The notes under the pieces were generated by a model. That model was not told the DNA's origin. It saw only the letters and a list, made by a program, of their open reading frames with translations, and ran no database searches. From Escherichia coli (GTDB lineage: Bacteria > Pseudomonadota > Gammaproteobacteria > Enterobacterales > Enterobacteriaceae), in the NCBI GenBank assembly GCA_005400705.1, contig GCA_005400705.1_4079.1: a stretch of DNA of 64,000 nt, one strand, 5' to 3'. How positions within the stretch are numbered: position 1 is the first letter of the stretch; the number at the start of each line of letters is the position of its first letter. Shown here piece after piece: positions 13,981 through 64,000 of the stretch. The translations under genes were made by a program, and so were the position numbers.

Positions 13981-14269
13981 ACATGAAGTAATTCATTTTG
14001 ATGATAAGATCTATATTCCAAATATTGATAGTACTGAAACATATTACCTAATCAATAAGATTATGGCTGAAACAAATACGTGTTGTCGTCAACAGCCAGG
14101 AAAATATGAGTTCAGTCAGACTATTGGTTATTACCGATATGATATGTTAGAATCATTTACAATTGATAAGTCTAAAGTTATTGACATTCTTGTACAGAAT
14201 GGATATAATGAACAACGTGTAAATGATACAGATTTACCAGTTTCAAAAATTGTTCTTTCTAATAATTAA
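13973..14269 (+). CDS. hypothetical protein
   Basis: In-frame ATG overlapping upstream stop (track ORF 13910-14269). Confidence 0.45.
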   Translation: MNKHEVIHFDDKIYIPNIDSTETYYLINKIMAETNTCCRQQPGKYEFSQTIGYYRYDMLESFTIDKSKVIDILVQNGYNEQRVNDTDLPVSKIVLSNN

Positions 14270-32731: not shown

Positions 32732-33153
32732 GAGGTTATAATAAGATTTGTATTTTTGTATTTTTAGTTTGTGCATTCAATTCGTTTGGTTACTACTGTA
32801 CAGAAAATAATATTTCATATGGTTTAAATCCTTTGTGGTTTACAATTTCTAATGTAGCACAAATTGGTATTGCTCTTATGTCTGCACTTATGTTCTGTCC
32901 AATTGTCACTATGGATACTGATCATGAAAGGCTTGGATTTCTCCGTGATACTGGAGACGAACCTTACAGTAGATTGATTGTGTTGTATCCATTTATTGTT
33001 ATTTTAGGTACTAACATCCAACTTGGGTCATTATCTAATAGTGTTACATCAGCAGCTATTGCTATATTTGCATTCACATTTTTTATGGTACACAAATCAG
33101 TACTTAATTGGTATATCACAAAAATGGCAGAAGAAGGTACTAAAAATACTTGA
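32728..33153 (+). CDS. multi-TM membrane protein (hypothetical)
   Basis: Several hydrophobic segments; ATGA overlap. Confidence 0.5.
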   Translation: MRGYNKICIFVFLVCAFNSFGYYCTENNISYGLNPLWFTISNVAQIGIALMSALMFCPIVTMDTDHERLGFLRDTGDEPYSRLIVLYPFIVILGTNIQLGSLSNSVTSAAIAIFAFTFFMVHKSVLNWYITKMAEEGTKNT

Positions 33154-41524: not shown

Positions 41525-42187
41525 ATGTTAGTTAATCTTAATTTCATCACTTCACCTGACTGGGCATTACGTGGAGTTTCTTTAAACTTCAAGGAAACTA
41601 TGTTTGATTACATTGGTGAGTGTACATTGGTAAATGCAACTTTTGACCCAAATCATCCGTTCTGGGCTGAAATTCATGATCCAACTGTAAACAACAATAC
41701 ATCTGTTATGACTATTGTCCAGACTAAACATGCAGGTATCCTTGCAGGTTATCGACCTGGACATGCAATTGAACACTTCACTGATTACGATGTAGTGGAT
41801 GAATACCCAATGATCCATGAAGATGGAAGTCTATACACATCTGAGGACTTCCGTGCTATCTTTAATAGTACTGATGATATTCTACCAAGTGGACGTCCAC
41901 GTCCTGAGTCTTATCTTATGCATCCATCTTATGGTGTAGCAGATACGCTTGAACAGATTATGAATAAGTACAAGAACCTAATTGAAGGTCCAGAAGAAAT
42001 TGTCCTGTGCTATCACCCAGTACTGAAGTCTGAACAACCAAAGGATGGTGGATGGCGTTGGCATAAGAATGGTGAGTATATCGGTACTAAACGAAGTAAA
42101 GAACGTTTTGAGTACTTGTATGATGAGCCAGATGTTGATGTGGTTTTGTGTTATAATTTTATTAAGGTGAAAAAGAAATGTATCTAG
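41525..42187 (+). CDS. hypothetical protein
   Basis: ATG after GAGGA (track ORF begins at a TTG at 41507). Confidence 0.5.
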   Translation: MLVNLNFITSPDWALRGVSLNFKETMFDYIGECTLVNATFDPNHPFWAEIHDPTVNNNTSVMTIVQTKHAGILAGYRPGHAIEHFTDYDVVDEYPMIHEDGSLYTSEDFRAIFNSTDDILPSGRPRPESYLMHPSYGVADTLEQIMNKYKNLIEGPEEIVLCYHPVLKSEQPKDGGWRWHKNGEYIGTKRSKERFEYLYDEPDVDVVLCYNFIKVKKKCI

Positions 42188-42417
42188 TACTAAGTTTTGT
42201 TGTTGCACTATTGTTTATGTTTTATCCTACACTAGTAGCATTAGCCACTAAACGACCGATTGTAGATATCACTACTGTATTCTTGCTAAACGTGGCATTA
42301 GTACTGGTTTCTATTATCATTCCCGTGAGCTTTACTGTTATTGATATTGTGTCGGTATTACTCTTCGTAATCAGTTATCTTATGCTTATTGAAGAAAAAC
42401 CAGTTGACAACCATTAG
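42178..42417 (+). CDS. small membrane protein (hypothetical)
   Basis: Two TM segments. Confidence 0.45.
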   Translation: MYLVLSFVVALLFMFYPTLVALATKRPIVDITTVFLLNVALVLVSIIIPVSFTVIDIVSVLLFVISYLMLIEEKPVDNH

Positions 42418-42477: not shown

Positions 42478-42804
42478 ATGCTATCAGTACTAATTTCAAT
42501 TCCGTCTTTAATTCTGATTTGGCTTCTGGTTTACGAATGCTTTATTACTGATGATAATGATAAAAAAGAGTTCTCTGAGTTGTTTATGCTTGATTCACCG
42601 ATTGTGCGTATTTTCTATACAGTCGTTGTGGTTTCAGTAATTGTATGGGTTTTGAGTTTTATCTTCCCACTCGGTGCAGTAGTTAAAACTTTGGATTTAG
42701 TTGAGAACTTTGTTGCAATTATGTGGCTAATCAAAGCACTATTTGCAGGAAATGTTAAAATTTGGATTGATATTATCAAATTCAAGTTCACGAATAAGAT
42801 GTAA
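42478..42804 (+). CDS. small membrane protein (hypothetical)
   Basis: SD GAGG; multiple hydrophobic segments. Confidence 0.5.
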   Translation: MLSVLISIPSLILIWLLVYECFITDDNDKKEFSELFMLDSPIVRIFYTVVVVSVIVWVLSFIFPLGAVVKTLDLVENFVAIMWLIKALFAGNVKIWIDIIKFKFTNKM

Positions 42805-43253: not shown

Positions 43254-43631
43254 ATGGTAAACACTATTTTACTTTTGTTGTTGAATATTCCAATTATTCT
43301 GTCTTTTTTAATTTCTATTTTTATGGCAGGATATTGTTTAGTTGCAGTAATTCATTTTATTTTAACAAACAAATATGTCCTAATTTCTAAGCTTGATTCT
43401 ATTTTTGCTTGCGATTCAATGGCTTATAACTTATGGTTAATTTGTTCTTGCATTATGGGAGTAACTTTCCTTCTGCATGTATTTGATGTCCTTGACCAAA
43501 AGTTCGTATACATCAGTACTGGATTGGCTCTTTATCCTGCTACGTGGTACTTGATTTACGTTGGTGATATATGGTATAGTACTTATAAAGAATATCAGTA
43601 CAAGAAATCACTTAACGTTGGAGGAAAATAA
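43254..43631 (+). CDS. multi-TM membrane protein (hypothetical)
   Basis: Hydrophobic throughout. Confidence 0.5.
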   Translation: MVNTILLLLLNIPIILSFLISIFMAGYCLVAVIHFILTNKYVLISKLDSIFACDSMAYNLWLICSCIMGVTFLLHVFDVLDQKFVYISTGLALYPATWYLIYVGDIWYSTYKEYQYKKSLNVGGK

Positions 43632-50051: not shown

Positions 50052-50087
50052 GTTATGATGTTGATATTAACTACAGAGGATAAAGTA

Positions 50088-50729
50088 ATGACTAAGCAAG
50101 AAATATTCAAAACTTTAATTGACATTTTGCGTCCATCAAAAACTCGTTGTGCGATGGAGTTTGATATTCCTTATGCTGAACGCGTAATCTTTCCACAAGT
50201 TAAAGCTGCTGGACTTACTTTGCTTGGAATGGGGATGTACTCTGTAGTAGTTGAACATAAAAACTATCCTGGGCGTGCATTTAAAGTAACCACTTCACGC
50301 TGGGATGGTTTTCGTGCTTATGCAATGTACTGCATTGAAAACGCAGGAACCAAGTTTCTTCCAGTGATCTACAGTGCAAACGAACAAGGAAACTTTGGAT
50401 GGTATGAGATGGACAAGTACTATCCTATAATTAAACAAAAAAATAATTATGATGACTTTGTTAGTACTAAAATTGGAGATTTATATTCTTATGCACATGC
50501 TGGTCAGTATGCTACTTCAGTGAATGATATGCGTGGAAATTCTGAAGAGATTGCTATTGCGACGGTCGCTGCTAACATCATGAAAGAGTTTCACGGGTGT
50601 TTTGTACCAGACATTCATTCCAGTAATGTCATGATGGATAAAGATGGCAATGTATTCATTACTGATCCTCTTTCGTGTGATGTACGTAGAGAAATACCAG
50701 TTACTGAAGAAGATCCAGTTTTTTATTGA
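50088..50729 (+). CDS. protein-kinase-like (phosphotransferase fold) protein
   Basis: ATG after AGAGGA (track ORF 50055-50729); catalytic-loop-like FVPDIHSSNVMMDKDGNVFITDP compares with aminoglycoside-phosphotransferase HGDLxxxNxx...DGxxxxIDL. Confidence 0.45.
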   Translation: MTKQEIFKTLIDILRPSKTRCAMEFDIPYAERVIFPQVKAAGLTLLGMGMYSVVVEHKNYPGRAFKVTTSRWDGFRAYAMYCIENAGTKFLPVIYSANEQGNFGWYEMDKYYPIIKQKNNYDDFVSTKIGDLYSYAHAGQYATSVNDMRGNSEEIAIATVAANIMKEFHGCFVPDIHSSNVMMDKDGNVFITDPLSCDVRREIPVTEEDPVFY

Positions 50730-50791: not shown

Positions 50792-51073
50792 ATGCGTTCA
50801 TTTGAAAACTTAATAGGTAAGAATCTTTTATCTGAAATTGATGCAGACGTTAAAGAATTATCCAAATCAAAAAGTTACATTCATTTGGATGAACTATTTG
50901 TTAAGTACGGTGAGATTGGTTTTAAGTCATTATTTGTTTTTACTATGAAAGTACATAGTTTAAAGTACTTCGATTTGAGTGCTAAAGATGGTGAACCGAA
51001 TCTATATTACATGTATTACCTTAAGAACAAAGATGAAGCTAATACATTACTCTCTGAATATATATTGGGGTAA
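50792..51073 (+). CDS. hypothetical protein
   Basis: SD AAAGGA. Confidence 0.5.
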   Translation: MRSFENLIGKNLLSEIDADVKELSKSKSYIHLDELFVKYGEIGFKSLFVFTMKVHSLKYFDLSAKDGEPNLYYMYYLKNKDEANTLLSEYILG

Positions 51074-51075
51074 AA

Positions 51076-51414
51076 ATGGAACAATATTTTGAATTAATAA
51101 ACAAAGTATCATTTTATGTAGTATCTTTGGTTTGGGTGTATTATATGTTTTGCTACATTATTGCATTCTTCCGATACACTACTTTATATGAACGTATCTA
51201 CTATGATGCCCCAATTTCATTCTTGATGTTTTGTGCATGTACGTGGGGAATATTAGAAGTACTGATATGTGGGTATAGTACTGATGAATTAAATCTGGTA
51301 TCGGTGTTGACTGGGTTTTCATTTGTTGTTATGATAGCTGCCGTTCCAGTATGGTTGTTCTTTGGACTAGTTCATCGCATTGATATATGGCGTTCTAATA
51401 TCCCTGAAAAGTAA
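51076..51414 (+). CDS. small multi-TM protein, array A member 1
   Basis: About 112 aa, 3-4 TM segments, FFRYTTLYERIYYDAPI after TM1, C-terminal RSNIPEK. Confidence 0.55.
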   Translation: MEQYFELINKVSFYVVSLVWVYYMFCYIIAFFRYTTLYERIYYDAPISFLMFCACTWGILEVLICGYSTDELNLVSVLTGFSFVVMIAAVPVWLFFGLVHRIDIWRSNIPEK

Positions 51415-51423
51415 GGATTGGTA

Positions 51424-51765
51424 ATGATTTATTACACTAACATGTTTGCCTATGCTGTTGCTTGCATTTACATTGTTTACTTCTTATTCGGTGGAGTACT
51501 GTGCTTCTTTAAGTACAAAACGTTGTTCAACCGAATGTACCCAAATCATCCAATTGTAGTTGTACTTTTGATTCTTTCAGTTTCTCAAATAATCGTTGAA
51601 ACTACAATGGGTATCAGTAGTGTACATTATAGTTTTGGTACTATAGTAATTATTACTATGCTTATTGCATACATTTTAGTACTTGGATATGGTATCTTTG
51701 GTAATATTGGTATGAAAATGTATCATCGAATTAAAACATTACGTGATAATCTACCGGAGCGTTGA
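51424..51765 (+). CDS. small multi-TM protein, array A member 2
   Basis: ATG after AAGGA (track ORF begins at a TTG at 51418); FFKYKTLFNRMYPNHPI; C-terminal LRDNLPER. Confidence 0.55.
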   Translation: MIYYTNMFAYAVACIYIVYFLFGGVLCFFKYKTLFNRMYPNHPIVVVLLILSVSQIIVETTMGISSVHYSFGTIVIITMLIAYILVLGYGIFGNIGMKMYHRIKTLRDNLPER

Positions 51766-51766
51766 T

Positions 51767-52111
51767 ATGTATAATTTGAACCTAATCTCATATATTATAA
51801 CAACACTGTTTACATTCTATGCCTTTGTTGGTATAATCCTACTGTACTTTAAATTTTATAAAGTGTTTAACCGTTTCTATCCTTCAATGGAGAATGAGTT
51901 TTTCTTTGTGTTGTACGTATGTTACACATTCATGGCTACATGTTTCACTGTAGTCGATGGTGTCATCGGCATTAAAACTGCTGCACCAAATGGTAGTACG
52001 CTGGTTGCATTTATTCTTACCGGATTCCTTGCAACTTATATTGCCTTCATTGCAACATGGTCAGTGGTTGAATTTCTCTTGCGACTACGAAAGAATATGC
52101 CGAATCGATAG
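51767..52111 (+). CDS. small multi-TM protein, array A member 3
   Basis: ATG after GGAG (track ORF 51743-52111); YFKFYKVFNRFYPSMEN; C-terminal LRKNMPNR. Confidence 0.55.
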   Translation: MYNLNLISYIITTLFTFYAFVGIILLYFKFYKVFNRFYPSMENEFFFVLYVCYTFMATCFTVVDGVIGIKTAAPNGSTLVAFILTGFLATYIAFIATWSVVEFLLRLRKNMPNR

Positions 52112-52120
52112 GAGACATAT

Positions 52121-52375
52121 ATGTTTGCATTGCGTAACAAAAACACTAAAGAAATATTATGTTTAGATACCGTATGGGATTGTGCGGGATCAACTACAGT
52201 TCTTGAAGAAGGAACTGGATATTGCGTGTTTGTTGTACATGATAGGAATGAACTCGAATTATTACTTGCTGAGTTCAATGCTGGTGGTAATCCTAACAGT
52301 ACTGAATACCCTGAGATTATCAATCCAGCACCACCAGGCTCTTATGAAATTCTACAACTGTGGGAGTTGAAGTAA
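52121..52375 (+). CDS. hypothetical protein
   Basis: SD GGAGA. Confidence 0.5.
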   Translation: MFALRNKNTKEILCLDTVWDCAGSTTVLEEGTGYCVFVVHDRNELELLLAEFNAGGNPNSTEYPEIINPAPPGSYEILQLWELK

Positions 52376-52755
52376 TGCGTCAAATGCACAAAGTAACCGA
52401 GCTAAACAAGCGTCTGGTTAAACAATCAATGTTCGAGGATAAAGAGTCTTATTATAACTTTAAACGTGCTGTAGAGGCTGCTATCCACATTCAGAAGCTT
52501 AAAGAACGTGGTTGTATTATTCTGGAAAATGGGTCGGAAGTTGTAACGGATGACTTTAGTGTAGCGTTTGATGTTTCACCTGACGGGACGCTATCAATGC
52601 CCCGCTTAGGAACTGGAAACATGACTGTTTGGGTTGGCTTCACTATGGGGAATGTACCTGGTACTGTGTACGTAGATGATGCGGAATTGAAAGACAGTTT
52701 CAAAAACTTATCTTATCTTGAACCACAATACGCACATGAAATGAATTTATTTTGA
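52375..52755 (+). CDS. hypothetical protein
   Basis: ATG after GGAG (track ORF 52360-52755). Confidence 0.5.
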   Translation: MRQMHKVTELNKRLVKQSMFEDKESYYNFKRAVEAAIHIQKLKERGCIILENGSEVVTDDFSVAFDVSPDGTLSMPRLGTGNMTVWVGFTMGNVPGTVYVDDAELKDSFKNLSYLEPQYAHEMNLF

Positions 52756-52756
52756 G

Positions 52757-52784
52757 TTGACAAACACATTCAGTACTGTATAAT
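52757..52784 (+). promoter_or_regulatory. sigma70-like promoter with extended -10
   Basis: TTGACA-AACACATTCAGTACTG-TATAAT. Confidence 0.6.
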
Positions 52785-52831
52785 GCTTATCAAGGGGATG
52801 AACTTCTCATCCCTACAATCGAGGAACTACC

Positions 52832-53386
52832 ATGATTACTTTTAAGAAAACTGCTAACCACATCCATGAAATCTACATTAACGGTCACAAAGCTGGCCTT
52901 CTTCGTTTACTCGCCCATCATCCTGATGTTACCGTATCTGATAATGAACCTAAAGATTGGCGTGTATTTTTCTTTGGAAAGTACAGTGATTTTCAAGTAT
53001 CAAACCTGAAGAACATTCGTTCAGTATGCACGTTAACTGAAATTAAAGAAAAGTTAGAAAAAGCATTGAAAACTAATCCAGATGGTGTTCTTCCACCTGA
53101 TAACTTTGTAGAGAAAGGTTATGCATTAGCTCATTTCAAAGATGGTACTATTCAATCTATCAGTACTGAATATGAATATCAATGGACTGAGTACTTCACT
53201 TATGGATCGCGTAATACATTGATGGCTTCACGTAGTAAATTGGAAGAAGTACTGACTCGTATGAATGAACGCGAACGTCAATTTTATGACAAACCAGAAA
53301 TGTGGAGTTCAACTTACATTGACCGTATTGACTATGTTATTATGACTCCAATCTTTGACACTGCTTACTATGATTCTTTGAAATAA
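52832..53386 (+). CDS. hypothetical protein
   Basis: SD GAGGAA. Confidence 0.55.
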   Translation: MITFKKTANHIHEIYINGHKAGLLRLLAHHPDVTVSDNEPKDWRVFFFGKYSDFQVSNLKNIRSVCTLTEIKEKLEKALKTNPDGVLPPDNFVEKGYALAHFKDGTIQSISTEYEYQWTEYFTYGSRNTLMASRSKLEEVLTRMNERERQFYDKPEMWSSTYIDRIDYVIMTPIFDTAYYDSLK

Positions 53387-53397
53387 GGATAACTTAT

Positions 53398-53574
53398 ATG
53401 AAACTACGTACTCGTAATCGACTGATGGATGCACTGTACCATGAACAGCTTTCACTGAATGAAGTGAAGCGACAGTTAATGTACACATATCTGTTACCCG
53501 CTCGCATTGCAAAACAACGTGCTAAAGAATTGCTGAAAGAAGCAATCGAGTACTGGGAATCTGATTCATACTAA
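53398..53574 (+). CDS. small ORF (58 aa), basic, hypothetical
   Basis: ATG after AAGGA; below ORF-track cutoff. Confidence 0.35.
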   Translation: MKLRTRNRLMDALYHEQLSLNEVKRQLMYTYLLPARIAKQRAKELLKEAIEYWESDSY

Positions 53575-53613
53575 TATTACGTGATATGTCACGTTAATTA
53601 AGTGAGGCGATAA

Positions 53614-53865
53614 ATGAAAATATTATTAGTTTTAATACTACTAATAGTTTTACCATTTACTTTAGTATCCCCTGGACTTGCATGGAATGTATTTGTGTAC
53701 TTAGTATGTACTATTGTAGTAAATGGTATCTTGTTCTTAGTTCTATTCATAAATGGAATAGGACACGGTGGAGGATGGACCAGTACTGCTGATATTGTAC
53801 ATAAAACCACTATGTCTTTATTTGTAGTGTGGAATTTATTCTGGACTTGGTTTGTGTTCTTCTAA
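53614..53865 (+). CDS. small membrane protein (hypothetical)
   Basis: SD GAGG; three hydrophobic segments. Confidence 0.5.
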   Translation: MKILLVLILLIVLPFTLVSPGLAWNVFVYLVCTIVVNGILFLVLFINGIGHGGGWTSTADIVHKTTMSLFVVWNLFWTWFVFF

Positions 53866-53874
53866 TTAAAAAAT

Positions 53875-54246
53875 ATGAATATAGATTTGAAAGGTGCAAC
53901 CCGAACTGTTATCCTCATTGGGGAATACGCTATCAAGATTCCAACCTTTAAAAGTTGGAAGCTATTCTTAACAGGGATGATAGCTAACCTCAATGAACGT
54001 TCGTGGATGCAGTACTCCAAGCGTAGTGATACTGGTATCTGTCCTACTTTGTGGTCATCATGTACTGGACTAGTAACTGTACAGAAACGTTGTAAGCCAG
54101 TGCAACATAGGGGTTTATTTTGGGTGGAGTTGTGTGCTTTAGCATTGAATACAGAGTTAAGTACTGACTTCTTCTATTCAGATGCGAAGCCAGAAAACTT
54201 TGGGTATCTGGGTGGTAAGTTAGTTAAACTTGATTATGGAGATTAA
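53875..54246 (+). CDS. hypothetical protein
   Basis: 123 aa ORF. Confidence 0.5.
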   Translation: MNIDLKGATRTVILIGEYAIKIPTFKSWKLFLTGMIANLNERSWMQYSKRSDTGICPTLWSSCTGLVTVQKRCKPVQHRGLFWVELCALALNTELSTDFFYSDAKPENFGYLGGKLVKLDYGD

Positions 54247-54247
54247 T

Positions 54248-54517
54248 ATGTACGCACTGTATAATAAAGAAAAGAAACGATTTGCTAAGGTTGAAATTTC
54301 GATTGATACATTTGATATGTTGGAGTACTGTATTGTAACTGACCTATCTGCTAACTTGTATTACGTTCATGATGACGTATCAGTACTGCAACGATTGCTT
54401 GAGAATTCCAAAAGTCAATGCCAGGACATCCATGATGGTTCATCTTATGAAACACCTGAGTGTCCCCACGGGCAACTCGATGGGTATGAGATTGTTAAGT
54501 TGGGAATTGTTGAGTAA
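54248..54517 (+). CDS. hypothetical protein
   Basis: ATG after GGAG (track ORF 54230-54517). Confidence 0.45.
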   Translation: MYALYNKEKKRFAKVEISIDTFDMLEYCIVTDLSANLYYVHDDVSVLQRLLENSKSQCQDIHDGSSYETPECPHGQLDGYEIVKLGIVE

Positions 54518-54523
54518 AAGGTA

Positions 54524-54552
54524 TTGACACCGTACTCATTTAACTGTATTAT
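54524..54552 (+). promoter_or_regulatory. sigma70-like promoter with extended -10
   Basis: TTGACA - 17 nt - TGTATTAT. Confidence 0.5.
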
Positions 54553-54582
54553 GTATGTACACCAACTAATGAGGAATCGGAA

Positions 54583-54942
54583 ATGGCATCTTTATCTGAA
54601 ATCACTGAACTGAATCCACTGGTAATTAGTACTGTTCAACGCACCAAGACGTTTTACTTCCGTCCTGCTGATGGATGGAAACGTGGAATGAATGGTGACT
54701 ATCGAGTACTGGAAGATTCGCTCATCGAGCGTATCAACTCTGAACTACAGAAGTATGAAGGTGTTAAAGTTGTCCGTTCAACTTCTCGTTATTTTGAGTA
54801 CTACATTGAGTCTTCAACTGTAAATGAAAACTCATCATTCTCGGTGGATAACACTGATATTCTTCGCAATGCAGTTGGTTTGCTATGCAACATTGCAGAA
54901 GAAATGGGATTAACTATCACCACAATGAGTGAGTTAGAATAG
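54583..54942 (+). CDS. hypothetical protein
   Basis: SD GAGGAA. Confidence 0.5.
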   Translation: MASLSEITELNPLVISTVQRTKTFYFRPADGWKRGMNGDYRVLEDSLIERINSELQKYEGVKVVRSTSRYFEYYIESSTVNENSSFSVDNTDILRNAVGLLCNIAEEMGLTITTMSELE

Positions 54943-54952
54943 AATAAAAAAA

Positions 54953-54976
54953 GGGTTGACTTAGGTCGGCCCTTTT
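54953..54976 (+). terminator. terminator hairpin (GGTTGAC repeat family variant)
   Basis: GGGTTGAC-TTAG-GTCGGCCC followed by TTTT, then -10-like TATTAT. Confidence 0.55.
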
Positions 54977-55012
54977 GCTATTATATCTATATCGAAACGA
55001 AGGAGACAAACC

Positions 55013-55786
55013 ATGACCCGTCAAGAGAAAGCAATCCAAATCGAAAAAAACTTCAATAGCATGATGGCTGCACTGGAATGCCTTCTTGATACACAAGCTA
55101 ACTCTATCAACTCTCTGATCGTATCAGGTAAAGGTGGTGTTGGTAAAACTTATAACGTTGACCAACGGTTGCAGAAAGCTGATGATAACTTTGAAATCGA
55201 CTACAAGAAAATCAGTGGTAAAGTAACTACTTTGGGTCTGTACGAAGCACTGTATCGTTCACGTCATGCCGCATCAGTACTGTTACTTGATGACGTTGAT
55301 ATCTTCTCTGACGAGACTAATATTGATTTGCTTAAAGCTGTGTTGGATACGTCAGAGAAGCGTGTAGTTTCTTACGCGACTTCTGCTAAGTACCTGGAAC
55401 AGCAGGGTATCCCTAAGCAGTTTGAATTCCGTGGTAAAGTAATCTTTCTGACTAACAAAAACCTGTCACAGATTGCTAAAGGTAAAAGCAGCTTAGCACC
55501 ACACATCGATGCACTGATCACTCGTAGTATCTTTGTTGACCTGCAACTGTTCACCAACGAAGAAGTGATGATTCACATTGAGAACATCATGAACAAAACT
55601 AACATCCTTGAAAACAATGGTGTTAACAAAAATGGTTGTAAAGCAATCCTGAATTGGATGCTGAACAACGAAGAACGTTTGCGTAGTCCATCACTGCGTA
55701 TGCCAGTACTGATCGCTGGTTTGTATAATAAATTCCCATACGATTGGGAATCAATGGCAGAGAATATGTTCCTTGAGAAAATTTAA
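55013..55786 (+). CDS. P-loop NTPase (deviant Walker A, ParA/MinD-like signature)
   Basis: SD AAGGAG; Walker A SGKGGVGKT and Walker B-like VLLLDDVD; codon choice (CTG, CGT, GGT) differs from neighbours. Confidence 0.55.
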   Translation: MTRQEKAIQIEKNFNSMMAALECLLDTQANSINSLIVSGKGGVGKTYNVDQRLQKADDNFEIDYKKISGKVTTLGLYEALYRSRHAASVLLLDDVDIFSDETNIDLLKAVLDTSEKRVVSYATSAKYLEQQGIPKQFEFRGKVIFLTNKNLSQIAKGKSSLAPHIDALITRSIFVDLQLFTNEEVMIHIENIMNKTNILENNGVNKNGCKAILNWMLNNEERLRSPSLRMPVLIAGLYNKFPYDWESMAENMFLEKI

Positions 55787-55853
55787 TTACATGTATTGAC
55801 AGTACTACACTATGGTAGTACTATAACTTAATATTCACCACCGGAGATACGAT

Positions 55854-56192
55854 ATGCTTGAGTTTTTTAATTCAGATACAATGCTTAGTATTACTTTGAT
55901 TTATCTGTTTGGTTTTTTCTTTTATCATGCACTAGTTGTAGTACTATGGTATTTTAAAAAGAAAATCGTTTTCAAACTGTATCCTGATGGAAACATTTCA
56001 CTACTTCTTTTCACTATTATCCAAGGTATGTTTGCAATTGTTGGTCTTATCGCACACTTAATTTATTGTGCTAATCCACAGTTGAACTCAATATCACAAT
56101 ATATTGTATTCCTTGGATTACTAATTTGGGTGCTGATATACTTGTTTAATCTCATCATTAATGGAAGAGCAAAAATTCGTGGGGACTTCTAA
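55854..56192 (+). CDS. small multi-TM protein, array B member 1
   Basis: 112 aa, 3-4 TM segments, YFKKKIVFKLYPDGNI after TM1. Confidence 0.55.
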   Translation: MLEFFNSDTMLSITLIYLFGFFFYHALVVVLWYFKKKIVFKLYPDGNISLLLFTIIQGMFAIVGLIAHLIYCANPQLNSISQYIVFLGLLIWVLIYLFNLIINGRAKIRGDF

Positions 56193-56539
56193 TGTTTGAA
56201 TCTTATCTTGAGTTTTTAAAGAGTAGTTCTGTTGCACATTCAATTGCAGGGATTATTCTAACAGGTTATGTAACATTTTGGGTAGTTATGTTTCTAGGAT
56301 GGTATTTTAAACGACAATTCTATAAGCGTAATGGTGAAGATTTTATGAATTCTTTCATTAATCAATCGTTGTTTGCATCAACATTGATAGCATGTATTGT
56401 AGCAACACTCACAGGAAAGGTACTGCCAGCATTCTCCGCAGTTTACGGTACATTGGGTATGATATGTGTAGTTTTTTACTTGACCATTAAAATTTGTTGT
56501 GTTATGATTGAACTTCGAAATAAGATACCGGAGGAATGA
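56192..56539 (+). CDS. small multi-TM protein, array B member 2
   Basis: YFKRQFYKRNGEDF after TM1; C-terminal ELRNKIPEE. Confidence 0.55.
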   Translation: MFESYLEFLKSSSVAHSIAGIILTGYVTFWVVMFLGWYFKRQFYKRNGEDFMNSFINQSLFASTLIACIVATLTGKVLPAFSAVYGTLGMICVVFYLTIKICCVMIELRNKIPEE

Positions 56540-56874
56540 TGGAGTACTTTATTGATTTACTGCCGTGGTATATGAAAGTTAGTACTTTGTACTATATTAT
56601 TAGTGCTGGATTCTACTTTCTGATGTGGTTCTTTAAACGACCAATTTCAGTATTCATCGCTGATAACATGCTGCAATTAAAATTACACGCATGGTTTGGT
56701 ATGGCGATGATTATGCCTATTATTCACTACTCAATGATTAGTAGAGGTTTCCGTTCTAATGGTGAACCAATTGTATTAGTATTCTATTGGGGTTCAACTA
56801 TTGCATATGTAAGTTTGTTGTTGTTCCCAGTCGTTCATAAGTTACGTGCTAAAATTCCTGATGCGAGGTACTAA
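56536..56874 (+). CDS. small multi-TM protein, array B member 3
   Basis: FFKRPISVF after TM1; C-terminal KLRAKIPDARY. Confidence 0.55.
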   Translation: MMEYFIDLLPWYMKVSTLYYIISAGFYFLMWFFKRPISVFIADNMLQLKLHAWFGMAMIMPIIHYSMISRGFRSNGEPIVLVFYWGSTIAYVSLLLFPVVHKLRAKIPDARY

Positions 56875-57188
56875 TGGATATAGTAACATTGATTTACACG
56901 TTGTATTCATTCTATTTCATTATGTGTTGGGTTGGATTTTTATTTGTACTCAAGATGTTTGATTATGTTGAAAAACAGATAAAAGAATTTTGTATTCCTT
57001 TTATCGGTTCAACCATTATTAGTGTTTCTTGTGTGTATTTTTTGGTTTTTGATCCACCAGATAACACTGCAATGATTGACTTGATGTTACTACCAACAAC
57101 TGTTACTTTTTTATGTAGTCTGATGCCGCCGATTAGCCGTGGACTAACAGAATTTAGACGCAATCAAAAGCGTAAACGAGGGATGTAA
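56874..57188 (+). CDS. small multi-TM protein, array B member 4
   Basis: Hydrophobic, basic C-terminus RRNQKRKRGM. Confidence 0.5.
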   Translation: MDIVTLIYTLYSFYFIMCWVGFLFVLKMFDYVEKQIKEFCIPFIGSTIISVSCVYFLVFDPPDNTAMIDLMLLPTTVTFLCSLMPPISRGLTEFRRNQKRKRGM

Positions 57189-57556
57189 TGGAAATTGCTC
57201 TTATTATCTTAACTGCTATGCTGTTTATTAGTACTGTGGTTATAATTGGTAAATTCTTTTGTGTATCATTTTTAGAAACGGTATACGATGAAATTGCTGA
57301 TGATTATGAATTACAAGCCGGATTTTTCATTACGTATTGGCTTAGTTTATTTTGTCTAGTCATTGCTTGGATTTTACATATCTTTAAATGGGGTATGGTA
57401 GACGGTGATCCTATTATGGCAATTATTGTTCTAGTGTTTGGTATCCTTGGTGGTGCAGTGCATAATCTAATGGTTATCTGGCAAACTGTTCAATATGTTT
57501 TGGTTCCCTATTTCGAAAAGATGCACAGTACAATTAAAAAACGTAAACGAGGTTAG
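57188..57556 (+). CDS. small multi-TM protein, array B member 5
   Basis: Hydrophobic, basic C-terminus KKRKRG. Confidence 0.5.
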   Translation: MEIALIILTAMLFISTVVIIGKFFCVSFLETVYDEIADDYELQAGFFITYWLSLFCLVIAWILHIFKWGMVDGDPIMAIIVLVFGILGGAVHNLMVIWQTVQYVLVPYFEKMHSTIKKRKRG

Positions 57557-57557
57557 T

Positions 57558-57920
57558 ATGAACGGGATAGAATTATCTTTCGTTGGTCAATTACTAGTAA
57601 TGGCGTATACATTTATCTTCTCACTGAATGCATTCGTGTGCATTGGGAAGTACTTCCATAAGCGACCATTATCAAATATATATGATGTAATCCAAAAGAG
57701 ATATAGTCCAGCATATACTGTGTTGGGTACAGTATTCAATTTTGGTTTTATTGTATTAATAATTGGACTGTTCACATCCTCTTTGAATACAATAACCTTC
57801 GGTCTTATGATATGTTCATTGGTATTAGCCGTAATTATATGTTGTTTAGTACTACACCTTGTGATACTATTATATATAAAGATCTCTGAAATCCACCAAC
57901 GTTTGGGTATGAGGAAATAA
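57558..57920 (+). CDS. small multi-TM protein, array B member 6
   Basis: ATG after GAGG (track ORF 57495-57920); YFHKRPLSNIYD after TM1. Confidence 0.5.
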   Translation: MNGIELSFVGQLLVMAYTFIFSLNAFVCIGKYFHKRPLSNIYDVIQKRYSPAYTVLGTVFNFGFIVLIIGLFTSSLNTITFGLMICSLVLAVIICCLVLHLVILLYIKISEIHQRLGMRK

Positions 57921-57921
57921 T

Positions 57922-58293
57922 ATGAGTTACCGTGAGATATTTTCCATTATTTCAATTATTATGTTCAGTACTGGAACACTGGTATGGTTATTATATTTCT
58001 TCTGTATTAATCCAGTGTATAATATGTTATGTAATATTAAATCAAGTGCCGGATATATCACTTTTATGGTCTTTATGGGATATTATTGTCTAAGCATTTT
58101 AGGTGTTGTTTTGGTTGTTATATTTGATGTGGGGCCAAATAGTGATGGTATGGAAATACATGAATTAATAACCATGTTTGGATGTATGATACCAACAGCA
58201 CTACTGTTTGTAGCTACTGGTAGTGGATTGATAAAATTATATAATTATTTAAAATCCATTCATAATTCCATTCATAATAAGCGTATGTCATAA
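57922..58293 (+). CDS. small multi-TM protein, array B member 7
   Basis: SD GAGGAAA; hydrophobic, C-terminal basic tail. Confidence 0.5.
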   Translation: MSYREIFSIISIIMFSTGTLVWLLYFFCINPVYNMLCNIKSSAGYITFMVFMGYYCLSILGVVLVVIFDVGPNSDGMEIHELITMFGCMIPTALLFVATGSGLIKLYNYLKSIHNSIHNKRMS

Positions 58294-58335
58294 TAAAAAA
58301 TCCAGTACTATTAAGTACTGGATGTATAAGGAGTT

Positions 58336-58998
58336 ATGATGAAATCAAAATTAGGTTTGTTTTATAAAAACTATTTTGTTAAACAACGTAAATTTATAAA
58401 AAAATATTTCTCTGGTGAGAAGTCTAGTCCTATAATTTTTAAAAGACCAAGTTATAATACTTACTTAGCTTGTGCTAAACAGTCTAAGAAATTTATTACT
58501 CTTTTAAATAAAAACAAAATTAAAGCTTCTTATGTTGAAACGAGAAGAAACTCATCAATAACTCCTGGTGATTTTATTGAGTACGGATGTTTCAATATTA
58601 AGTATAATGATAATACATACTTTATGGATATTGATTGTAATACATCCAATCTTTTTAACATTGTAGTAAATCCATTAAAACAATATAATGTTTATGGTGA
58701 TTCTATTATCAAATTAATCAAAAACAAAGATGGCTTTGATTTTGAAATAAATGTTTTAGATGATAATTTTGACGAAGTACCCGTAAACCCTGAAATCTGT
58801 GATATTTTAAACAGTTTAAAAGGTAGTACCTACAATATATCATCTGATTTAATGTTTCAGTACTCATTAATCCATAAAGATATTGAAAAGTATATTGAAT
58901 GCTCCAGAATTTTGAATTTTCTCTATGATGAATTTAAAAAGAGTTCTAAAATAACTGCATACACTTTGTACAATATTCCTAAAATGGTGAATCTTTAA
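58336..58998 (+). CDS. hypothetical protein, divergent member of EExFFQxS family
   Basis: SD AAGGAG; motif variant SSDLMFQYSLIHKDIEKYIE; last plus-strand gene before the minus-strand block. Confidence 0.5.
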   Translation: MMKSKLGLFYKNYFVKQRKFIKKYFSGEKSSPIIFKRPSYNTYLACAKQSKKFITLLNKNKIKASYVETRRNSSITPGDFIEYGCFNIKYNDNTYFMDIDCNTSNLFNIVVNPLKQYNVYGDSIIKLIKNKDGFDFEINVLDDNFDEVPVNPEICDILNSLKGSTYNISSDLMFQYSLIHKDIEKYIECSRILNFLYDEFKKSSKITAYTLYNIPKMVNL

Positions 58999-59678: not shown

Positions 59679-60869
59679 TTACAATTGTCTAGGTGTATCC
59701 AGTACATATCTATTTGTACGAGGACCACCATCATCATCAGTTCCGGTTGAATATATATTTTTCATATCAGCAGTTAGGAAAGTACGATACGAACCGCGAT
59801 ATATTTTTATTTTATCATACATAGAATATGTTATTTCTGACGGCAATGGACATGCAGTAAATTTACCAATGGTAACATCAGAACCAACACCCAATGTGCC
59901 AGCATAACTACTCGCATTTAAACCAGTTGCATATACACCTGCACTCGTAACTAGTATACTAGATTGTGTTGGGTATCCAGTATGAATTGAATACAAAGTA
60001 CCGGGTGGTAAGGTTGTACTATTGTTTCCTAAAACTCCATTAACAGTGCTAGATGTAGTTTTATTTCCCCATGCTCCATTATTAGCTAATCCACCAACTA
60101 GAAACTGACGTGCTCCTGTATTTGGATTCTCCACTAAAGCACTGACTGAACCCATTGAGCATACAGTGTATTGTAACGTTTTTGTGTATGTTGTACTTGG
60201 CTGATATAAAGTATATTCATTATATAAAGTCCATGTAGTGCTGGAACTTATACCGGATGTACCACCACCAATATATAAATTATTTTGTGTATCAAAAAAC
60301 ATTGCACAGCTATTTGTTGACATTATTTGTGCAATATCAACATCTGGTGTTACAGCTTTAACAAATGAACCATCGGTTATTTGTTGAGTTTTTCCAGTAC
60401 CATCAGCGAATTGTTTAGCCCCACTCCAACCAGTACTCCATATTGTATTATTATCCATTAAGAAAGTAAACCACGTAGTACCTGCATACATCTGTTTAAT
60501 TGAAGTACTTGAACTTTGTGTGAACAAATTTTCAATATATTGGTTATAACTTAAAAATGATGTAGTACTAGTTTCTAAACCAATATGACTACCATATCCA
60601 CAATAAAAATAATTTAAGTCATTATCTTGTACTAACAAAGTTCCTTCTGACATCCAACAATCGTTAACGTTTTCTCTAATTAATGTCCATGTTCTTAATG
60701 CAGTGTTGTTTCCTCTCCCAAACTTCCCAAAACTATTATTGCCTCGTGCGTATAGTTGACCATCAGTATAAAGTACAACAACATCACTATTGATTGGTAT
60801 TATTTTCTTAATTTGAAGAGGCTCAGGTGTAATATTTCCATAATCAAACATTCTAACAAAAGGTAACAT
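59679..60869 (-). CDS. RCC1-like repeat protein with conserved MLPFVRMFDYGNI N-terminus
   Basis: Start set to the ATG after AAGGAGGAAAT (track ORF extends 22 codons further into the upstream repeat); repeated G-x-N-x-x-G-x-x-G motifs (YARGNNSFGKFGRGN, YATGLNASSYAGTLGVG). Confidence 0.6.
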   Translation of the reverse strand: MLPFVRMFDYGNITPEPLQIKKIIPINSDVVVLYTDGQLYARGNNSFGKFGRGNNTALRTWTLIRENVNDCWMSEGTLLVQDNDLNYFYCGYGSHIGLETSTTSFLSYNQYIENLFTQSSSTSIKQMYAGTTWFTFLMDNNTIWSTGWSGAKQFADGTGKTQQITDGSFVKAVTPDVDIAQIMSTNSCAMFFDTQNNLYIGGGTSGISSSTTWTLYNEYTLYQPSTTYTKTLQYTVCSMGSVSALVENPNTGARQFLVGGLANNGAWGNKTTSSTVNGVLGNNSTTLPPGTLYSIHTGYPTQSSILVTSAGVYATGLNASSYAGTLGVGSDVTIGKFTACPLPSEITYSMYDKIKIYRGSYRTFLTADMKNIYSTGTDDDGGPRTNRYVLDTPRQL

Positions 60870-60939
60870 ATTTCCTCCTTTATTCATTATACTATATTTA
60901 ATACAAAAAGAAATGCCAGTATCAAGTACTGGCATAATA

Positions 60940-62118
60940 TTATCGGTTAAATTTAAAATCTGTTATGTGTGTCCATGTATGATTTAATGGTGTACTCATT
61001 GGTGTAAAGCCAGCAGGGTCTGACAAAGCTGTACCACGTGCGTACATAAATTGATTGCCAGTACAATCCATTATAGCATAAGAACGTGTTGCTGTGCCAC
61101 ATTTGAACCCAACTGCACTACTTGGGGTCGGTAATACTTCAAATGTAGGTGCATTTGAACTACCACCCCCATCTTTTGTTCCAGCTATGTACAGAACTCC
61201 ATTAGTATCAATGATTAAGTTAGTCCAATATGCTTGTTCTCGACCAGCATAAAAATATGTTAAATCACCGGGTACAAATGGTAACGTTCCTTTATATATT
61301 GTGGTATTAACATTCACTGGTGCACCAGCTACACCCCATGAACTCATATAGTTTCTCCCACTTGCGTAGAATGTAGTTCCTTTACCGTAAAGTATTAATG
61401 TTGCTTGACTTGTTCGCATTGCATTATATTCAAACTCAGGATCATCAGTAGCGTCCTTAAAAATCTGTGTCCATGTTGTTATATTGCCAGTAGTTGTAAC
61501 ACCCATTTGATAATAATAATTATCACCAGTAGCATAGAATTCTTTAGGGCCAGTTTGTACAATTGCATTCCCATTAGTTAACCAAAAATCTAATGTATTA
61601 GTCTTGATCTTGGTTGGTGTGTAATTCGCCACGGTATTTCCTTTTCCGAAATAACCATTAGCGTTATTTCCATGACCCCATAAATCACCATTAGTTGTGC
61701 GTAGGAATAATGTACCAGTATTGAATCCAACTTTTTCTATAGTACTTATGTCAATACCAACAGCAGTGTACTTCGTTGTAAAATCTTGAAAAGTACTCCA
61801 ATAATTTGATGAACCATTAAACATGGTTTGTCTGCCAGTGTACTTCACTTTATTATCGTTAGTGATAAGTAATGTCCCCCACACTGACGCGAACATTAAC
61901 TTAACATTTTCCATAACAAAGTATGGCTTACCGTATGCTGACGCGGTAGTGTTTAAACCTAATAGTTGTCCATCATTACTACAACCCCATACTTCGCCGT
62001 TATCCAAAAGCATCAACATAGTAGGTTTGCCAGATGATACATCCAAAAAGAAATCTTTTGGTGTTGGTACACCAGGTGTGATATTCCCATAATCAAACAA
62101 TCTTACAAAAGGTAACAT
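60940..62118 (-). CDS. RCC1-like repeat protein with conserved MLPFVRLFDYGNI N-terminus
   Basis: AAGGAGGGAAAT-ATG; motifs WGHGNNANGYFGKGN, YATGDNYYYQMGV. Confidence 0.6.
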   Translation of the reverse strand: MLPFVRLFDYGNITPGVPTPKDFFLDVSSGKPTMLMLLDNGEVWGCSNDGQLLGLNTTASAYGKPYFVMENVKLMFASVWGTLLITNDNKVKYTGRQTMFNGSSNYWSTFQDFTTKYTAVGIDISTIEKVGFNTGTLFLRTTNGDLWGHGNNANGYFGKGNTVANYTPTKIKTNTLDFWLTNGNAIVQTGPKEFYATGDNYYYQMGVTTTGNITTWTQIFKDATDDPEFEYNAMRTSQATLILYGKGTTFYASGRNYMSSWGVAGAPVNVNTTIYKGTLPFVPGDLTYFYAGREQAYWTNLIIDTNGVLYIAGTKDGGGSSNAPTFEVLPTPSSAVGFKCGTATRSYAIMDCTGNQFMYARGTALSDPAGFTPMSTPLNHTWTHITDFKFNR

Positions 62119-62189
62119 ATTTCCCTCCTTTATTCATTATACTATATTTAATACAAATAAGAATGCCAGTATCAAGTACTGGCATTATG

Positions 62190-63299
62190 TTATTTTGGTA
62201 AATCAATTTTAGTAAAGACTGCAACATCTTCACTTGCTCCTGGTATTGCGTAATAAGAACCAGTACTATACACATCTCCATTTTTGGTTAATATCGATGT
62301 CAAACCATCACTAAAAAGAACATCCCTAATCTCACTAACTTCAACTGGTAATTGTAAATTGGTAGCACTATATATAGCACCAGTTTGAGAATTGTTTAAT
62401 CCCAAACCACGGTTCGCCCCAACACCCTTCTGATATGTACTAGTAATTACCATTTGTGTAGCAGTATTTAAGGCAGGTGAATTCGTCATAAACAACGGAG
62501 AACTATTAGGCAAAGTACTTACAGGAACGGCACGGAATGTAGTCGTACCTGAACTAAGAAAGTTTGGAGTTTGACCACATACGAAATATGATGTACCATT
62601 ATAGTAATTGAATGCATTACCACCAATGGCTGCATCGATTACACCAGAACTACGCAATCCCCAAGTGTTAATTTGTGTTTGGTTCCCCGTACCATGCTGT
62701 CCACTACTATTCCATCCAGAACTATATAGCTTATTATCTAATGTAAGATACATACTATCATTCGCATTGGTCATTACTTTACGAACGTTCGTAGCACATT
62801 GAGTTAATGTGTAAATTGATGAGGAACCAATACCCAAAGAACCACGATATCCATTATCTCCTGCACCATAGAGTACTGAATTAGTGCTAAGTACAAATAT
62901 TAAACCATTTGTACATACAATATTAGCAATTTCACTTACTGGTATAGCATTGGTAAACCAATTAGTCCTTTCAACTAATACAGTACTGTAAGAAGTAGTT
63001 GTAGAAGATGAGAACCAGTACGTTTGACCTGATGTCCATATCGTATTATCATTTTTAATAATAACAAGTGTACGATCACCCACGAAAAAATTAGAAACAT
63101 CTGTACTTACTAATATCCATGAAGATACCGTGTTGGTATTACCATTTCCAGATTCACCACCTTGATTTCTACCTATGTAATATAAATCATGTGAATCAGT
63201 CAATAAGAATTGACCTTGTGTAGAAGCACCAACTTTAATTATATTTTTAGGACCAGGTACAATATTTCCGTACTTAACCATTCTTGCAAAAGGTAACAT
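62190..63299 (-). CDS. RCC1-like repeat protein with conserved MLPFARMVKYGNI N-terminus
   Basis: AAGGAGAGAATT-ATG; motifs YYIGRNQGGESGNGN, YGAGDNGYRGSLGIG, YSSGWNSSGQHGTGN. Confidence 0.6.
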   Translation of the reverse strand: MLPFARMVKYGNIVPGPKNIIKVGASTQGQFLLTDSHDLYYIGRNQGGESGNGNTNTVSSWILVSTDVSNFFVGDRTLVIIKNDNTIWTSGQTYWFSSSTTTSYSTVLVERTNWFTNAIPVSEIANIVCTNGLIFVLSTNSVLYGAGDNGYRGSLGIGSSSIYTLTQCATNVRKVMTNANDSMYLTLDNKLYSSGWNSSGQHGTGNQTQINTWGLRSSGVIDAAIGGNAFNYYNGTSYFVCGQTPNFLSSGTTTFRAVPVSTLPNSSPLFMTNSPALNTATQMVITSTYQKGVGANRGLGLNNSQTGAIYSATNLQLPVEVSEIRDVLFSDGLTSILTKNGDVYSTGSYYAIPGASEDVAVFTKIDLPK

Positions 63300-63309
63300 A
63301 ATTCTCTCC

Positions 63310-64000
63310 TTAATTTAATAATGCCCCTGGCAAATCCACTTTGACGAATTGTGCATATGCTGAGGAATTTTGATCAAAGTTTGGTCCCAATCCATAAAAT
63401 GAGCTAATGCCGTCTTCATTTGTGTATATGATATAAACGTTCTTTACATCATTTCCGCATATAAATCGAATGTCTTTCGTTTGTGTTCCCGCTGGAACAT
63501 TACGAAGGTTCACAACGCCATTACTTGCATTGTTATCAGCCGACGCAATTGGTAATTGATTTTGACCATATTGACCACGCATATTTTTTGCATCTAAACC
63601 AAACACAGTATTTGATACCGCACCAACTTTCAAAAATGAACCAAAACTATTATTGAATGACTTTGGAAATGTACCACTATAAACACTTCTCCCATCTGAT
63701 AATACCGCTGAACTGAATTTCCCGTTATTCGATATGGCAAATTCATTGTAAGGAAGTGTACCCATTTTGGTATATACAGAATATGAATTAGTGGAAGTAT
63801 TATCAATAATCTTATTACCATTATATCCAATACCATACTGGTATCCGTCTGCATCTTGAACTATACACAAAGGACCACTTGGGGTTTGTGTCAACGAAAC
63901 AACACGTTCAACTTGTATATCACCAAATGTATTTCTTCGCCATGTTCTATCTATTATAGTACTAGTATTACCCAAAGATAATTCCACACTATATAATAGA
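63310..64000 (-). CDS. repeat protein, 5' end beyond the window (partial); probable further paralog
   Basis: Open minus-strand frame runs to the window edge with no upstream stop; contains YGIGYNGNKIIDN and GLGPNFDQNS. Confidence 0.5.
   Translation of the reverse strand, partial: LLYSVELSLGNTSTIIDRTWRRNTFGDIQVERVVSLTQTPSGPLCIVQDADGYQYGIGYNGNKIIDNTSTNSYSVYTKMGTLPYNEFAISNNGKFSSAVLSDGRSVYSGTFPKSFNNSFGSFLKVGAVSNTVFGLDAKNMRGQYGQNQLPIASADNNASNGVVNLRNVPAGTQTKDIRFICGNDVKNVYIIYTNEDGISSFYGLGPNFDQNSSAYAQFVKVDLPGALLN

Follow-up and report, generated by a model that had tools for sequence, protein, structure and literature searches.

We analysed a 64,000-nucleotide (nt) stretch of DNA (contig GCA_005400705.1_4079.1, deposited under Escherichia coli; hereafter the window) that carries two tandem arrays of genes for small membrane proteins, which we call A1-A3 and B1-B7 (Table 1). 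Judged by nucleotide match, the window derives from an Asteriusvirus, that is, a 121Q/PBECO4-like jumbo coliphage (a myovirus) of the Rak2-like group: positions 51000-58400 match Escherichia phage CRJP21 at 96% across 100% of their length, and 121Q, PBECO4, phAPEC6, slurp01 and others at 88-97%. A first-pass annotation made from the letters alone had proposed ten related genes here, and the open reading frame (ORF) listing of the window contains all ten at the coordinates then given. On inspection of the sequence, the starts of A2, A3 and B6 are better placed at internal ATGs preceded by Shine-Dalgarno sequences; with these three starts moved, proteins that had been described as 105-125 amino acids (aa) long are of 104-123 aa.

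The two arrays and their protein family

Neighbouring genes of the B array meet in 1-nt or 4-nt overlaps (TAATG, ATGA) or across 1-nt spacers, and the spacers of the A array are 9 and 1 nt, junctions that fit the translational coupling suggested at first pass. Each downstream Shine-Dalgarno sequence lies in or directly beside the last codons of the preceding gene (overlap sites at 56180-56192, 56527-56539, 56862-56874, 57176-57188, 57544-57556 and 57908-57920), and it is carried by the last 3-5 codons of the upstream array gene, which encode PEE, RG, KRG or MRK tails; IPEE corresponds to ...CCGGAGGAATGA and KRKRG to ...CGAGGTTAG. Conserved basic and acidic C-terminal residues are partly dual-coded, and because of this overlap the shared tail motif may be partly constrained at the nucleotide level.

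Hydropathy and charge analysis finds exactly three hydrophobic segments, where three to four had been described, and a basic C-terminal tail, as described, in each of the ten proteins. Counted over 78 distinct family members, lysine plus arginine reach a density of 0.13 in loop 1 and 0.28 in the C-tail, compared with 0.035 N-terminally and 0.044 in loop 2; in 78/78 sequences, loop 1 and the tail together have more of these residues than the other two segments. Read with the positive-inside rule, this charge bias argues for a uniform N-out/C-in topology. The predicted protein starts in the periplasm and has three transmembrane (TM) helices; the loop that follows TM1 is cytoplasmic, basic and aromatic, and the C-terminal helix is likewise cytoplasmic and basic. 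For most copies, the Muenster and GAP32 records carry TMHMM and Phobius notes of the same topology, and the helices of an AlphaFold2 model of B2 (four helices, predicted local distance difference test score 80) agree with hydropathy. The short motifs noted at first pass are less general than the topology: the aromatic stretch after TM1 is clear as FFK or YFK in A1-A3, B1-B3 and B6 and is not a property of the whole set, and the tail motif, [LIW]R..[ILM]P[EDN], is strict in A1, A2, A3, B2 and B3, with only [FMI][RH]..[ILQ]..KR-type variants at the aligned position in B1 and B4-B7.

Pairwise identities among the ten proteins are 12-25% and most blastp pairs are insignificant, the significant ones being A1-A2-A3 and B1-B2 alone, at ~24-25% identity over full length (25% for A1-A2). 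Because pairwise blastp is too weak beyond these pairs, we adopted profile methods based on syntenic loci from sixteen relatives, spanning four named genera and unclassified phages. Small membrane ORFs taken from the window and from the first thirteen of these loci clustered into subfamilies C1 (A1-A3, B1 and an extra copy, B0), C2 (B5, B6), C3 (B2), C4 (B4), C5 (B3), C6 (B7), C7 (the last array gene in other genera) and C0 (the GAP32, CBB, Yersinia, Serratia and Erwinia type). Comparison of orthologue-enriched profiles with hhalign, over ~95-106 aligned columns, links all subfamilies at 80-97% probability (C1-C3 96.3%; C3-C5 97.1%; C2-C6 95.2%; C2-C3 91%; C0 to C2, C3 and C7 92-94%; C2-C4 79.9%, E 1.4e-5, 96 columns), against at most 5% for the controls, which were two unrelated families of small membrane proteins from the same phages and all reversed profiles.

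Hidden Markov models (HMMs) of the subfamilies match only the ten genes among the 255 ORFs of the window and, in a set of 979 ORFs from 17 sources, nothing but array genes. An HMM made from GAP32, CBB, Yen904, Kaldavass and Serratia BF genes alone matches B2, B4, B6 and B7, and B4 is matched by the other-genera (GAP32-type) HMM at 2.8e-5. An iterative HMM search seeded with A2 on seven loci stopped at seven members. PHROG matches are strong for eight members (E 1e-46 to 1e-70) and weak for A3 (phrog_19285, E 2.5e-4), and there is none for B6, which is placed by the local C2 profile at 5e-39; the PHROG collection spreads the family over at least seven of its own families (19285, 19454, 19046, 27396, 33258, 26405, 27618).

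Given full-length profile matches far above controls, and HMM matches exclusive to the array genes, we therefore accept a single family: on this profile evidence the ten genes are true paralogues, members of one clade-specific family with a common three-helix topology and common motifs. The low pairwise identities, the mostly insignificant blastp pairs and the diffuseness of the all-family profile (mean column identity 17%) could instead be read as the mark of unrelated hydrophobic ORFs alike by composition, or of ORFan debris. The chance of this is negligible, and we consider it refuted by the same profile and control results together with conserved Shine-Dalgarno sequences, ratios of non-synonymous to synonymous substitution rates (dN/dS) below 0.5 and orthologues in the four named genera and unclassified relatives; the resemblance is not generic hydrophobicity only.

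The window also encodes seven other small multi-TM ORFs (284-637, 32309-32731, 32728-33153, 42178-42417, 42478-42804, 43254-43631 and 53614-53865), none of which is matched by the family HMMs. The last of these, of 83 aa, differs sharply from the arrays in being 96-99% conserved throughout Asteriusvirus.

Table 1. Array genes, associated sites and conserved neighbours in the window (o93 is a flanking gene described in the text)
Feature	Coordinates	Strand	Description
A1	51076..51414	+	112 aa, subfamily C1; phrog_19285 E 4e-59; C1 HMM 2e-34
A2	51424..51765	+	113 aa, C1; ORF opens at TTG 51418; AAGGA Shine-Dalgarno before ATG 51424
A3	51767..52111	+	114 aa, C1; ORF opens at GTG 51743; GGAG Shine-Dalgarno before ATG
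B1	55854..56192	+	112 aa, subfamily C1, the same as A1-A3
B2	56192..56539	+	115 aa, subfamily C3; hub of the homology network
B3	56536..56874	+	112 aa, subfamily C5; ATGA overlap with B2
B4	56874..57188	+	104 aa, subfamily C4; weakest link of the family
B5	57188..57556	+	122 aa, subfamily C2
B6	57558..57920	+	120 aa, C2; ORF opens at 57495; GAGG Shine-Dalgarno before ATG
B7	57922..58293	+	123 aa, subfamily C6
Sigma-70-type promoter-like site	55796..55824	+	TTGACA-17-TACTAT, a consensus match in the 67-nt gap between the NTPase gene and B1
Hairpin ATCCAGTACT-TAAT-AGTACTGGAT	58300..58323		just 3' of B7; T-run on the minus strand only
AAA+-type P-loop nucleoside triphosphatase (NTPase)	55013..55786	+	phrog_1250, NrdC.10-like; conserved neighbour upstream of the B array
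T7 gp0.7-like protein kinase	50055..50729	+	phrog_15752 E 4e-97; upstream of the o93-A1-A2-A3 unit

Distribution, selection and allele exchange

An exhaustive HMMER search of 1.84 billion representative sequences returned 38 clusters, all of 89-125 aa and all matched over full length, in which every source-named member comes from a Rak2-like phage and some of the others lie on contigs of up to ~350 kb; no bacterial or other-phage relatives appeared in that search. A single all-family profile, too diffuse for farther reach, gave 14 matches among 5.8 billion proteins, all of jumbo-phage type, and tblastn gave hits in 46 phage records, from phages of Escherichia, Klebsiella, Salmonella and Erwinia. 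Only Rak2-like jumbo phages that infect Enterobacterales carry the family, with about 5-11 copies in the genome of a carrier. Counted with the family HMMs (E < 1e-3), carriers hold 3-11 family genes per locus: 11 in CRJP21 and Turkey5, 10 in the window, 8 in Muenster and Kaldavass, 5-6 in GAP32, CBB, Yen9-04, Serratia BF and EJP2, and 3 in Munch, with about two extra small membrane genes in each of Munch and EJP2 that are recognised by synteny and fall below the HMM threshold. At the same threshold, no family gene was found in Xanthomonas phage XaC1.

The B array of the window reads C1-C3-C5-C4-C2-C2-C6 and that of Klebsiella phage Muenster C3-C3-C1-C5-C4-C2-C6-C7. Because paralogue order is kept between Asteriusvirus and Alcyoneusvirus in this way, we conclude that the duplications predate the split of the genera. 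The A array is a separate C1-type outpost, also present in Munch, EJP2 and Kaldavass. Known relatives that belong to the same family, as connected by HMM and hhalign matches, are GAP32_522-527, CBB_539-545, Muenster_554-561, 121Q gp207-209 and gp224-232, and phAPEC6 gp012c-017c; their arrays likewise encode three-TM proteins and likewise stand directly after an NrdC.10-like NTPase. In the literature these relatives figure as separate hypothetical proteins, as opposed to the one superfamily recognised here, and the CBB paper lists CBB_539/540/541/543 as BLASTP paralogues without a function (PMC5259590). Already public, then, were the genes themselves, as "hypothetical" or "membrane protein", and a partial paralogy for phage CBB; the single-family model, topology, corrected starts, promoter, conserved paralogue order, selection regime and allele mosaic are new here.

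Several public annotations at these loci are in error. The CRJP21 record (our locus L001) labels A1 (L001 6077-6415) 'endonuclease V' and B0-B3 (L001 13666-15027) 'DNA condensation' or 'regulator of chromosome condensation'. B6 is unannotated in CRJP21, UE-S1 and phAPEC6, in two of which a short opposite-strand ORF is called instead; the positions concerned are L001 15740-15928(-), L014 9270-9401(-) and L021 3865-4231. The NTPase appears in public records as 'thioredoxin', 'FleQ' or 'clamp loader'.

In comparisons with UE-S1 and ph0011, dN/dS is 0.03-0.47 for the array genes and 0.03-0.31 for neighbouring soluble genes, so that the arrays evolve under a somewhat relaxed purifying selection. 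When JNE01, Turkey5 and A4 are compared instead, identity between array proteins is 23-68% (mostly 25-53%) and dS is saturated, whereas flanking genes are 87-100% identical with dS of 0.05-0.6. Because this deep divergence lies within close flanks, we regard the locus as a mosaic of old allele lineages exchanged by recombination. Against CRJP21, B1 and B2 are 81-90% identical and B3-B7 98-100%. Two alternative descriptions were rejected. A hypervariable island beside an invariant NTPase does not fit an NTPase that itself has an allele class at 59% identity, in 121Q and A4, nor array genes whose dN/dS never exceeds 0.5; and hypermutation in situ is replaced by mosaic allele exchange. Nor was the tandem amplification noted at first pass a recent one, because order is conserved between genera and each copy is under purifying selection.

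Copy number changes are visible at several points. The window is without the B0 copy present in CRJP21, 121Q and ph0011 (window 55787-55870 against 13599-14020 of the CRJP21 locus L001), and its B1 consists of the B0 promoter and first codons joined to the B1 body, the remainder matching CRJP21 B1. Such a structure fits the loss of B0 through an unequal crossover, for which the similarity of the two genes at their 5' ends would have given the occasion. JNE01 and Turkey5 each have two C4 copies, and in 121Q B4 is split into two ORFs (gp228/gp229, at 10732-11047 of our 121Q locus, L016), representing either a pseudogenised copy or a sequencing frameshift. Three soluble-looking flanking genes are deeply diverged too when measured against JNE01, Turkey5 or A4, namely o93 (50792-51073; 53-60% identity), o84 (52121-52375; 35-51%) and o220 (58336-58998; 32%), and genes slightly farther from the arrays are 87-100% identical; all three fall in PHROGs with no assigned function and may be part of the same exchangeable cassettes.

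Transcription context and neighbouring genes

Sites of the form TTGACA-N16-18-TAYWAT occur 16 times in the window, between 2427 and 55824 and all on the plus strand, against 0.86 expected. One lies 30 nt upstream of B1 and is kept in six Asteriusvirus genomes, including CRJP21, 121Q, UE-S1, JNE01 and Turkey5; deep divergence of the array alleles in some of these genomes has left it intact. The plus-strand block of ~59 kb looks like an early region transcribed by host RNA polymerase, and the arrays are probably expressed early in infection; the authors of the CBB genome paper placed the orthologous block in a suspected early, host-takeover region (PMC5259590). The hairpin after B7, which may end the B transcript, scored as terminator-like on the minus strand.

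The NTPase has weak AAA_16, Hda and Orc1 matches and is annotated NrdC.10-like in GAP32. Its synteny with the array extends over Asteriusvirus, Alcyoneusvirus, Mimasvirus, Eneladusvirus and the unclassified Munch and Kaldavass; Muenster apart, the other genera have only 1-10 nt between the NTPase stop and the start of the array, as does the Asteriusvirus EJP2, and in several genera the two are co-transcribed. Because NTPase homologues occur without an array, in XaC1 and more distant phages and in one case among replication genes, the NTPase is probably a neighbour and not a functional partner of the array, and a translocase combining it with a membrane ring was rejected on the same evidence. 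The gene that interrupts the array in Mimasvirus and Eneladusvirus, GAP32_524, also counts against a translocase, as it is no paralogue of the NTPase. Further upstream, the orthologue of the kinase carries the same T7 gp0.7-like annotation in the 121Q record, and a second, short ORF at 53875-54246 (phrog_4301, no assigned function) shows a kinase-like D-x-K-x-x-N stretch by eye.

Two further observations concern the surrounding DNA. The 8-bp palindrome CAGTACTG has 41 copies in the window against 0.85 expected (e.g. at 333, 19331, 38107, 52771, 55275 and 57966). Copies fall both inside and between genes, some of them within promoter spacers or the hairpin that follows B7. The core of the palindrome, AGTACT, recurs at roughly one copy per 300 bp in all Rak2-like loci fetched, that of Xanthomonas phage XaC1 among them, and is rare in two distant phage loci (L019, L020); it is a sequence signature of the whole clade. 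Past the end of the B array, the minus strand at 59679-64000 bears a run of repeated ~400-aa genes, RCC1-like or 'DNA condensation' genes in relatives, with internal DNA repeats 80-97% identical to several paralogues. This is a second tandem multigene family, and it has been noted for Munch (PMC8273493).

Possible functions of the arrays

Searches of Pfam (E <= 1), NCBIfam (E <= 0.1) and PADLOC (E <= 0.1) and a structural search gave no match for the ten proteins. The same Pfam and NCBIfam scans, with PHROG functions at E <= 0.01, assign none of them to a holin family; the Pfam scan (E <= 1) finds no sequence or profile similarity to T4 Imm, and no colicin immunity family is matched in Pfam or NCBIfam. 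Sub-threshold hits to DUF1475 (19 bits), SUR7, Wzy and the SdhC-type 'succ_dehyd_cytB' (16 bits) are typical for hydrophobic proteins and were set aside as spurious. A 'Phi92_gp233' note in the ph0011 record was not borne out, since tblastn with B1 gave no phi92 match. The phAPEC6 paper does not mention gp12-gp17 in its main text.

A diversified role in conflict at the membrane is the best available reading of the arrays; superinfection exclusion and anti-defence, both raised in the first-pass annotation, are specific roles that the family may have. The form we favour, tentatively and as a possibility rather than a probability, is exclusion of superinfecting phages, or immunity at the membrane, after the manner of Imm. 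Synthesis would come early, and the proteins would then be inserted into the host inner membrane, where each paralogue would recognise, within the membrane or the periplasm, the membrane-inserting ejection or tape-measure proteins of one phage class (or a pore-former) and block genome entry. Specificity would be set by the variable hairpin of TM2, loop 2 and TM3, in which 22 orthologue pairs are 26-31% identical; identity is 39-45% in the N-terminus, TM1, loop 1 and the tail, and of these better conserved parts TM1, the cytoplasmic loop and the tail would help with insertion or have a role common to all paralogues. Divergent allele classes within close flanks, together with gain and loss of copies, are dynamics of a conflict type and count for this reading. 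So do the evidence for one family, the uniform charge bias, the early context of the B array, the maintenance of the genes by purifying selection and the precedent of T4 Imm. A large repertoire would also fit a jumbo phage, because a long infection cycle exposes the cell to faster competitors; in the case of Sharanji, late-stage cells were imaged 70 min post infection (PMC11895373).

Two kinds of known system resemble what is proposed. T4 Imm and HK97 gp15 are, like the members of the family, small inner-membrane proteins, and they act on an incoming phage at the membrane; Imm, which is made early, differs in being a single gene of 83-94 aa with another helix count. The immunity proteins for pore-forming colicins reside in the inner membrane, have ~110-180 aa and 3-4 TM helices, recognise the pore-forming helical hairpin within the membrane and are highly diversified between alleles. 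Unlike the family, they are encoded on plasmids beside the toxin gene and not in a phage array, and they share no sequence or fold match with it. The 9.3-kDa Imm protein of T4 has a periplasmic N-terminus in the inner membrane, binds the tape-measure protein and blocks genome translocation, and the analogy to colicin immunity is drawn in the same paper (bioRxiv 10.64898/2026.03.06.709160).

An extended form of the favoured reading, in which the arrays would constitute a combinatorial membrane immunity repertoire, is unlikely. Each ancient paralogue would then neutralise a different class of membrane-inserting invader protein, for example the tape-measure or ejection proteins that rival phages bring in, pore-forming bacteriocins or tailocins, and whole-allele cassettes would be swapped among co-circulating jumbo phages.

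Several points weigh against exclusion or immunity. In neither sequence nor structure do the proteins resemble Imm, HK97 gp15, the colicin immunity proteins or anything else that has been characterised, and our literature search on function, transcriptomics and toxicity of the array genes found nothing specific. To our knowledge, exclusion systems described so far consist of one or two proteins, whereas the arrays encode 5-11. The difference in identity between the hairpin and the other parts of the protein is modest and comes from orthologue pairs that are not independent, and the constraint on the C-terminal motif may in part reflect the Shine-Dalgarno sequence of the next gene. Long-conserved paralogue order and translational coupling, moreover, fit a multi-subunit complex at least equally well.

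Such a complex would be a single hetero-oligomeric assembly of the phage in the membrane (a channel, scaffold or anchor) of 5-8 paralogous three-helix subunits serving its own physiology. Coupling by 1-4-nt overlaps would favour co-ordinated synthesis, the identity and order of paralogues are kept across genera with purifying selection on each copy, and the start of the array so close behind the NTPase stop in several genera points to one operon. A fixed set of subunits is harder to square with a copy number that varies from ~5 to 11, with the absence of B0 from the window, the doubling of B4 in JNE01 and Turkey5 and its splitting in 121Q, and with recombination breakpoints inside the array, as seen in the identities of B1 and B2 as against B3-B7 to CRJP21. 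NTPase homologues without an array, one of them in a replication module, and the separate unit formed by the A copies also speak against it, and we rate the complex as unlikely, if still a close rival of the favoured reading. In the most exotic variant, the paralogues may form a previously unseen hetero-oligomeric inner-membrane structure specific to Rak2-like phages.

Ranking just below the favoured Imm-like reading, and likewise possible rather than probable, is a set of host-takeover or anti-defence effectors, each paralogue inhibiting or re-tuning a different host inner-membrane protein; candidate targets are transporters, proteases such as FtsH, division proteins, and membrane-anchored defence effectors or sensors. 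The arrays lie in an apparently early, sigma-70-driven context beside a gp0.7-like kinase, are multicopy, mosaic and variable in copy number, as accessory and counter-defence loci are, and are limited to phages of Enterobacterales, being absent from the Xanthomonas relative XaC1. Cells infected with Sharanji filament and bulge (PMC11895373), an observation without a tie to array genes. Set against these points are the lack of a match to PADLOC (E <= 0.1) or to any known inhibitor family, and the consideration that conserved host inner-membrane proteins give no obvious reason for allele classes of 25-50% identity within one genus.

Holin/antiholin-like activity was also offered at first pass; with it we considered a pinholin-like role in lysis timing. 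Lambda S105, a class I holin, is of similar size and has three TM helices, an N-out/C-in orientation and a basic cytoplasmic C-terminus; class I holins are thus like the family (~105-125 aa) in size, helix number, orientation and charged tail, the family's side of this comparison coming from hydropathy and charge. It also speaks for this option that the endolysin of the clade is SAR-like (signal-anchor-release), with an N-terminal TM domain, and that no holin has been reported; against it, that endolysin is reported elsewhere in the genome (PMC5259590). Holins differ, moreover, in late expression and endolysin linkage, whereas the family has an apparently early context and ten ancient paralogues. 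Because the region has sigma-70-type promoters, with a consensus promoter directly before B1, early expression is indicated and not a holin role; there is no holin match in Pfam or PHROG functions, no endolysin or spanin lies among the ten flanking ORFs scanned (50.0-59.0 kb), and ten anciently retained holin paralogues would be unprecedented. We therefore disfavour this option and consider it very unlikely.

More than 80% of the genes of Rak2-like jumbo phages are without an assigned function (PMC7247149), and these phages are under development against E. coli, Klebsiella, Salmonella and Erwinia. The array family is one of the most allele-variable loci between otherwise near-identical members of the group. 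The practical gain is a defined gene set with corrected starts, a family model, a topology and allele classes for expression and deletion work. If exclusion or evasion of membrane defences is its role, the family would bear on cocktail design, through mutual exclusion between phages, and on host-range differences between close relatives, and would inform how slow-replicating giant phages protect the infected cell. If the immunity repertoire is real, the arrays would match, on the phage side, the polymorphic arrays of immunity genes, and no multigene exclusion system would have been described before in a virulent phage.

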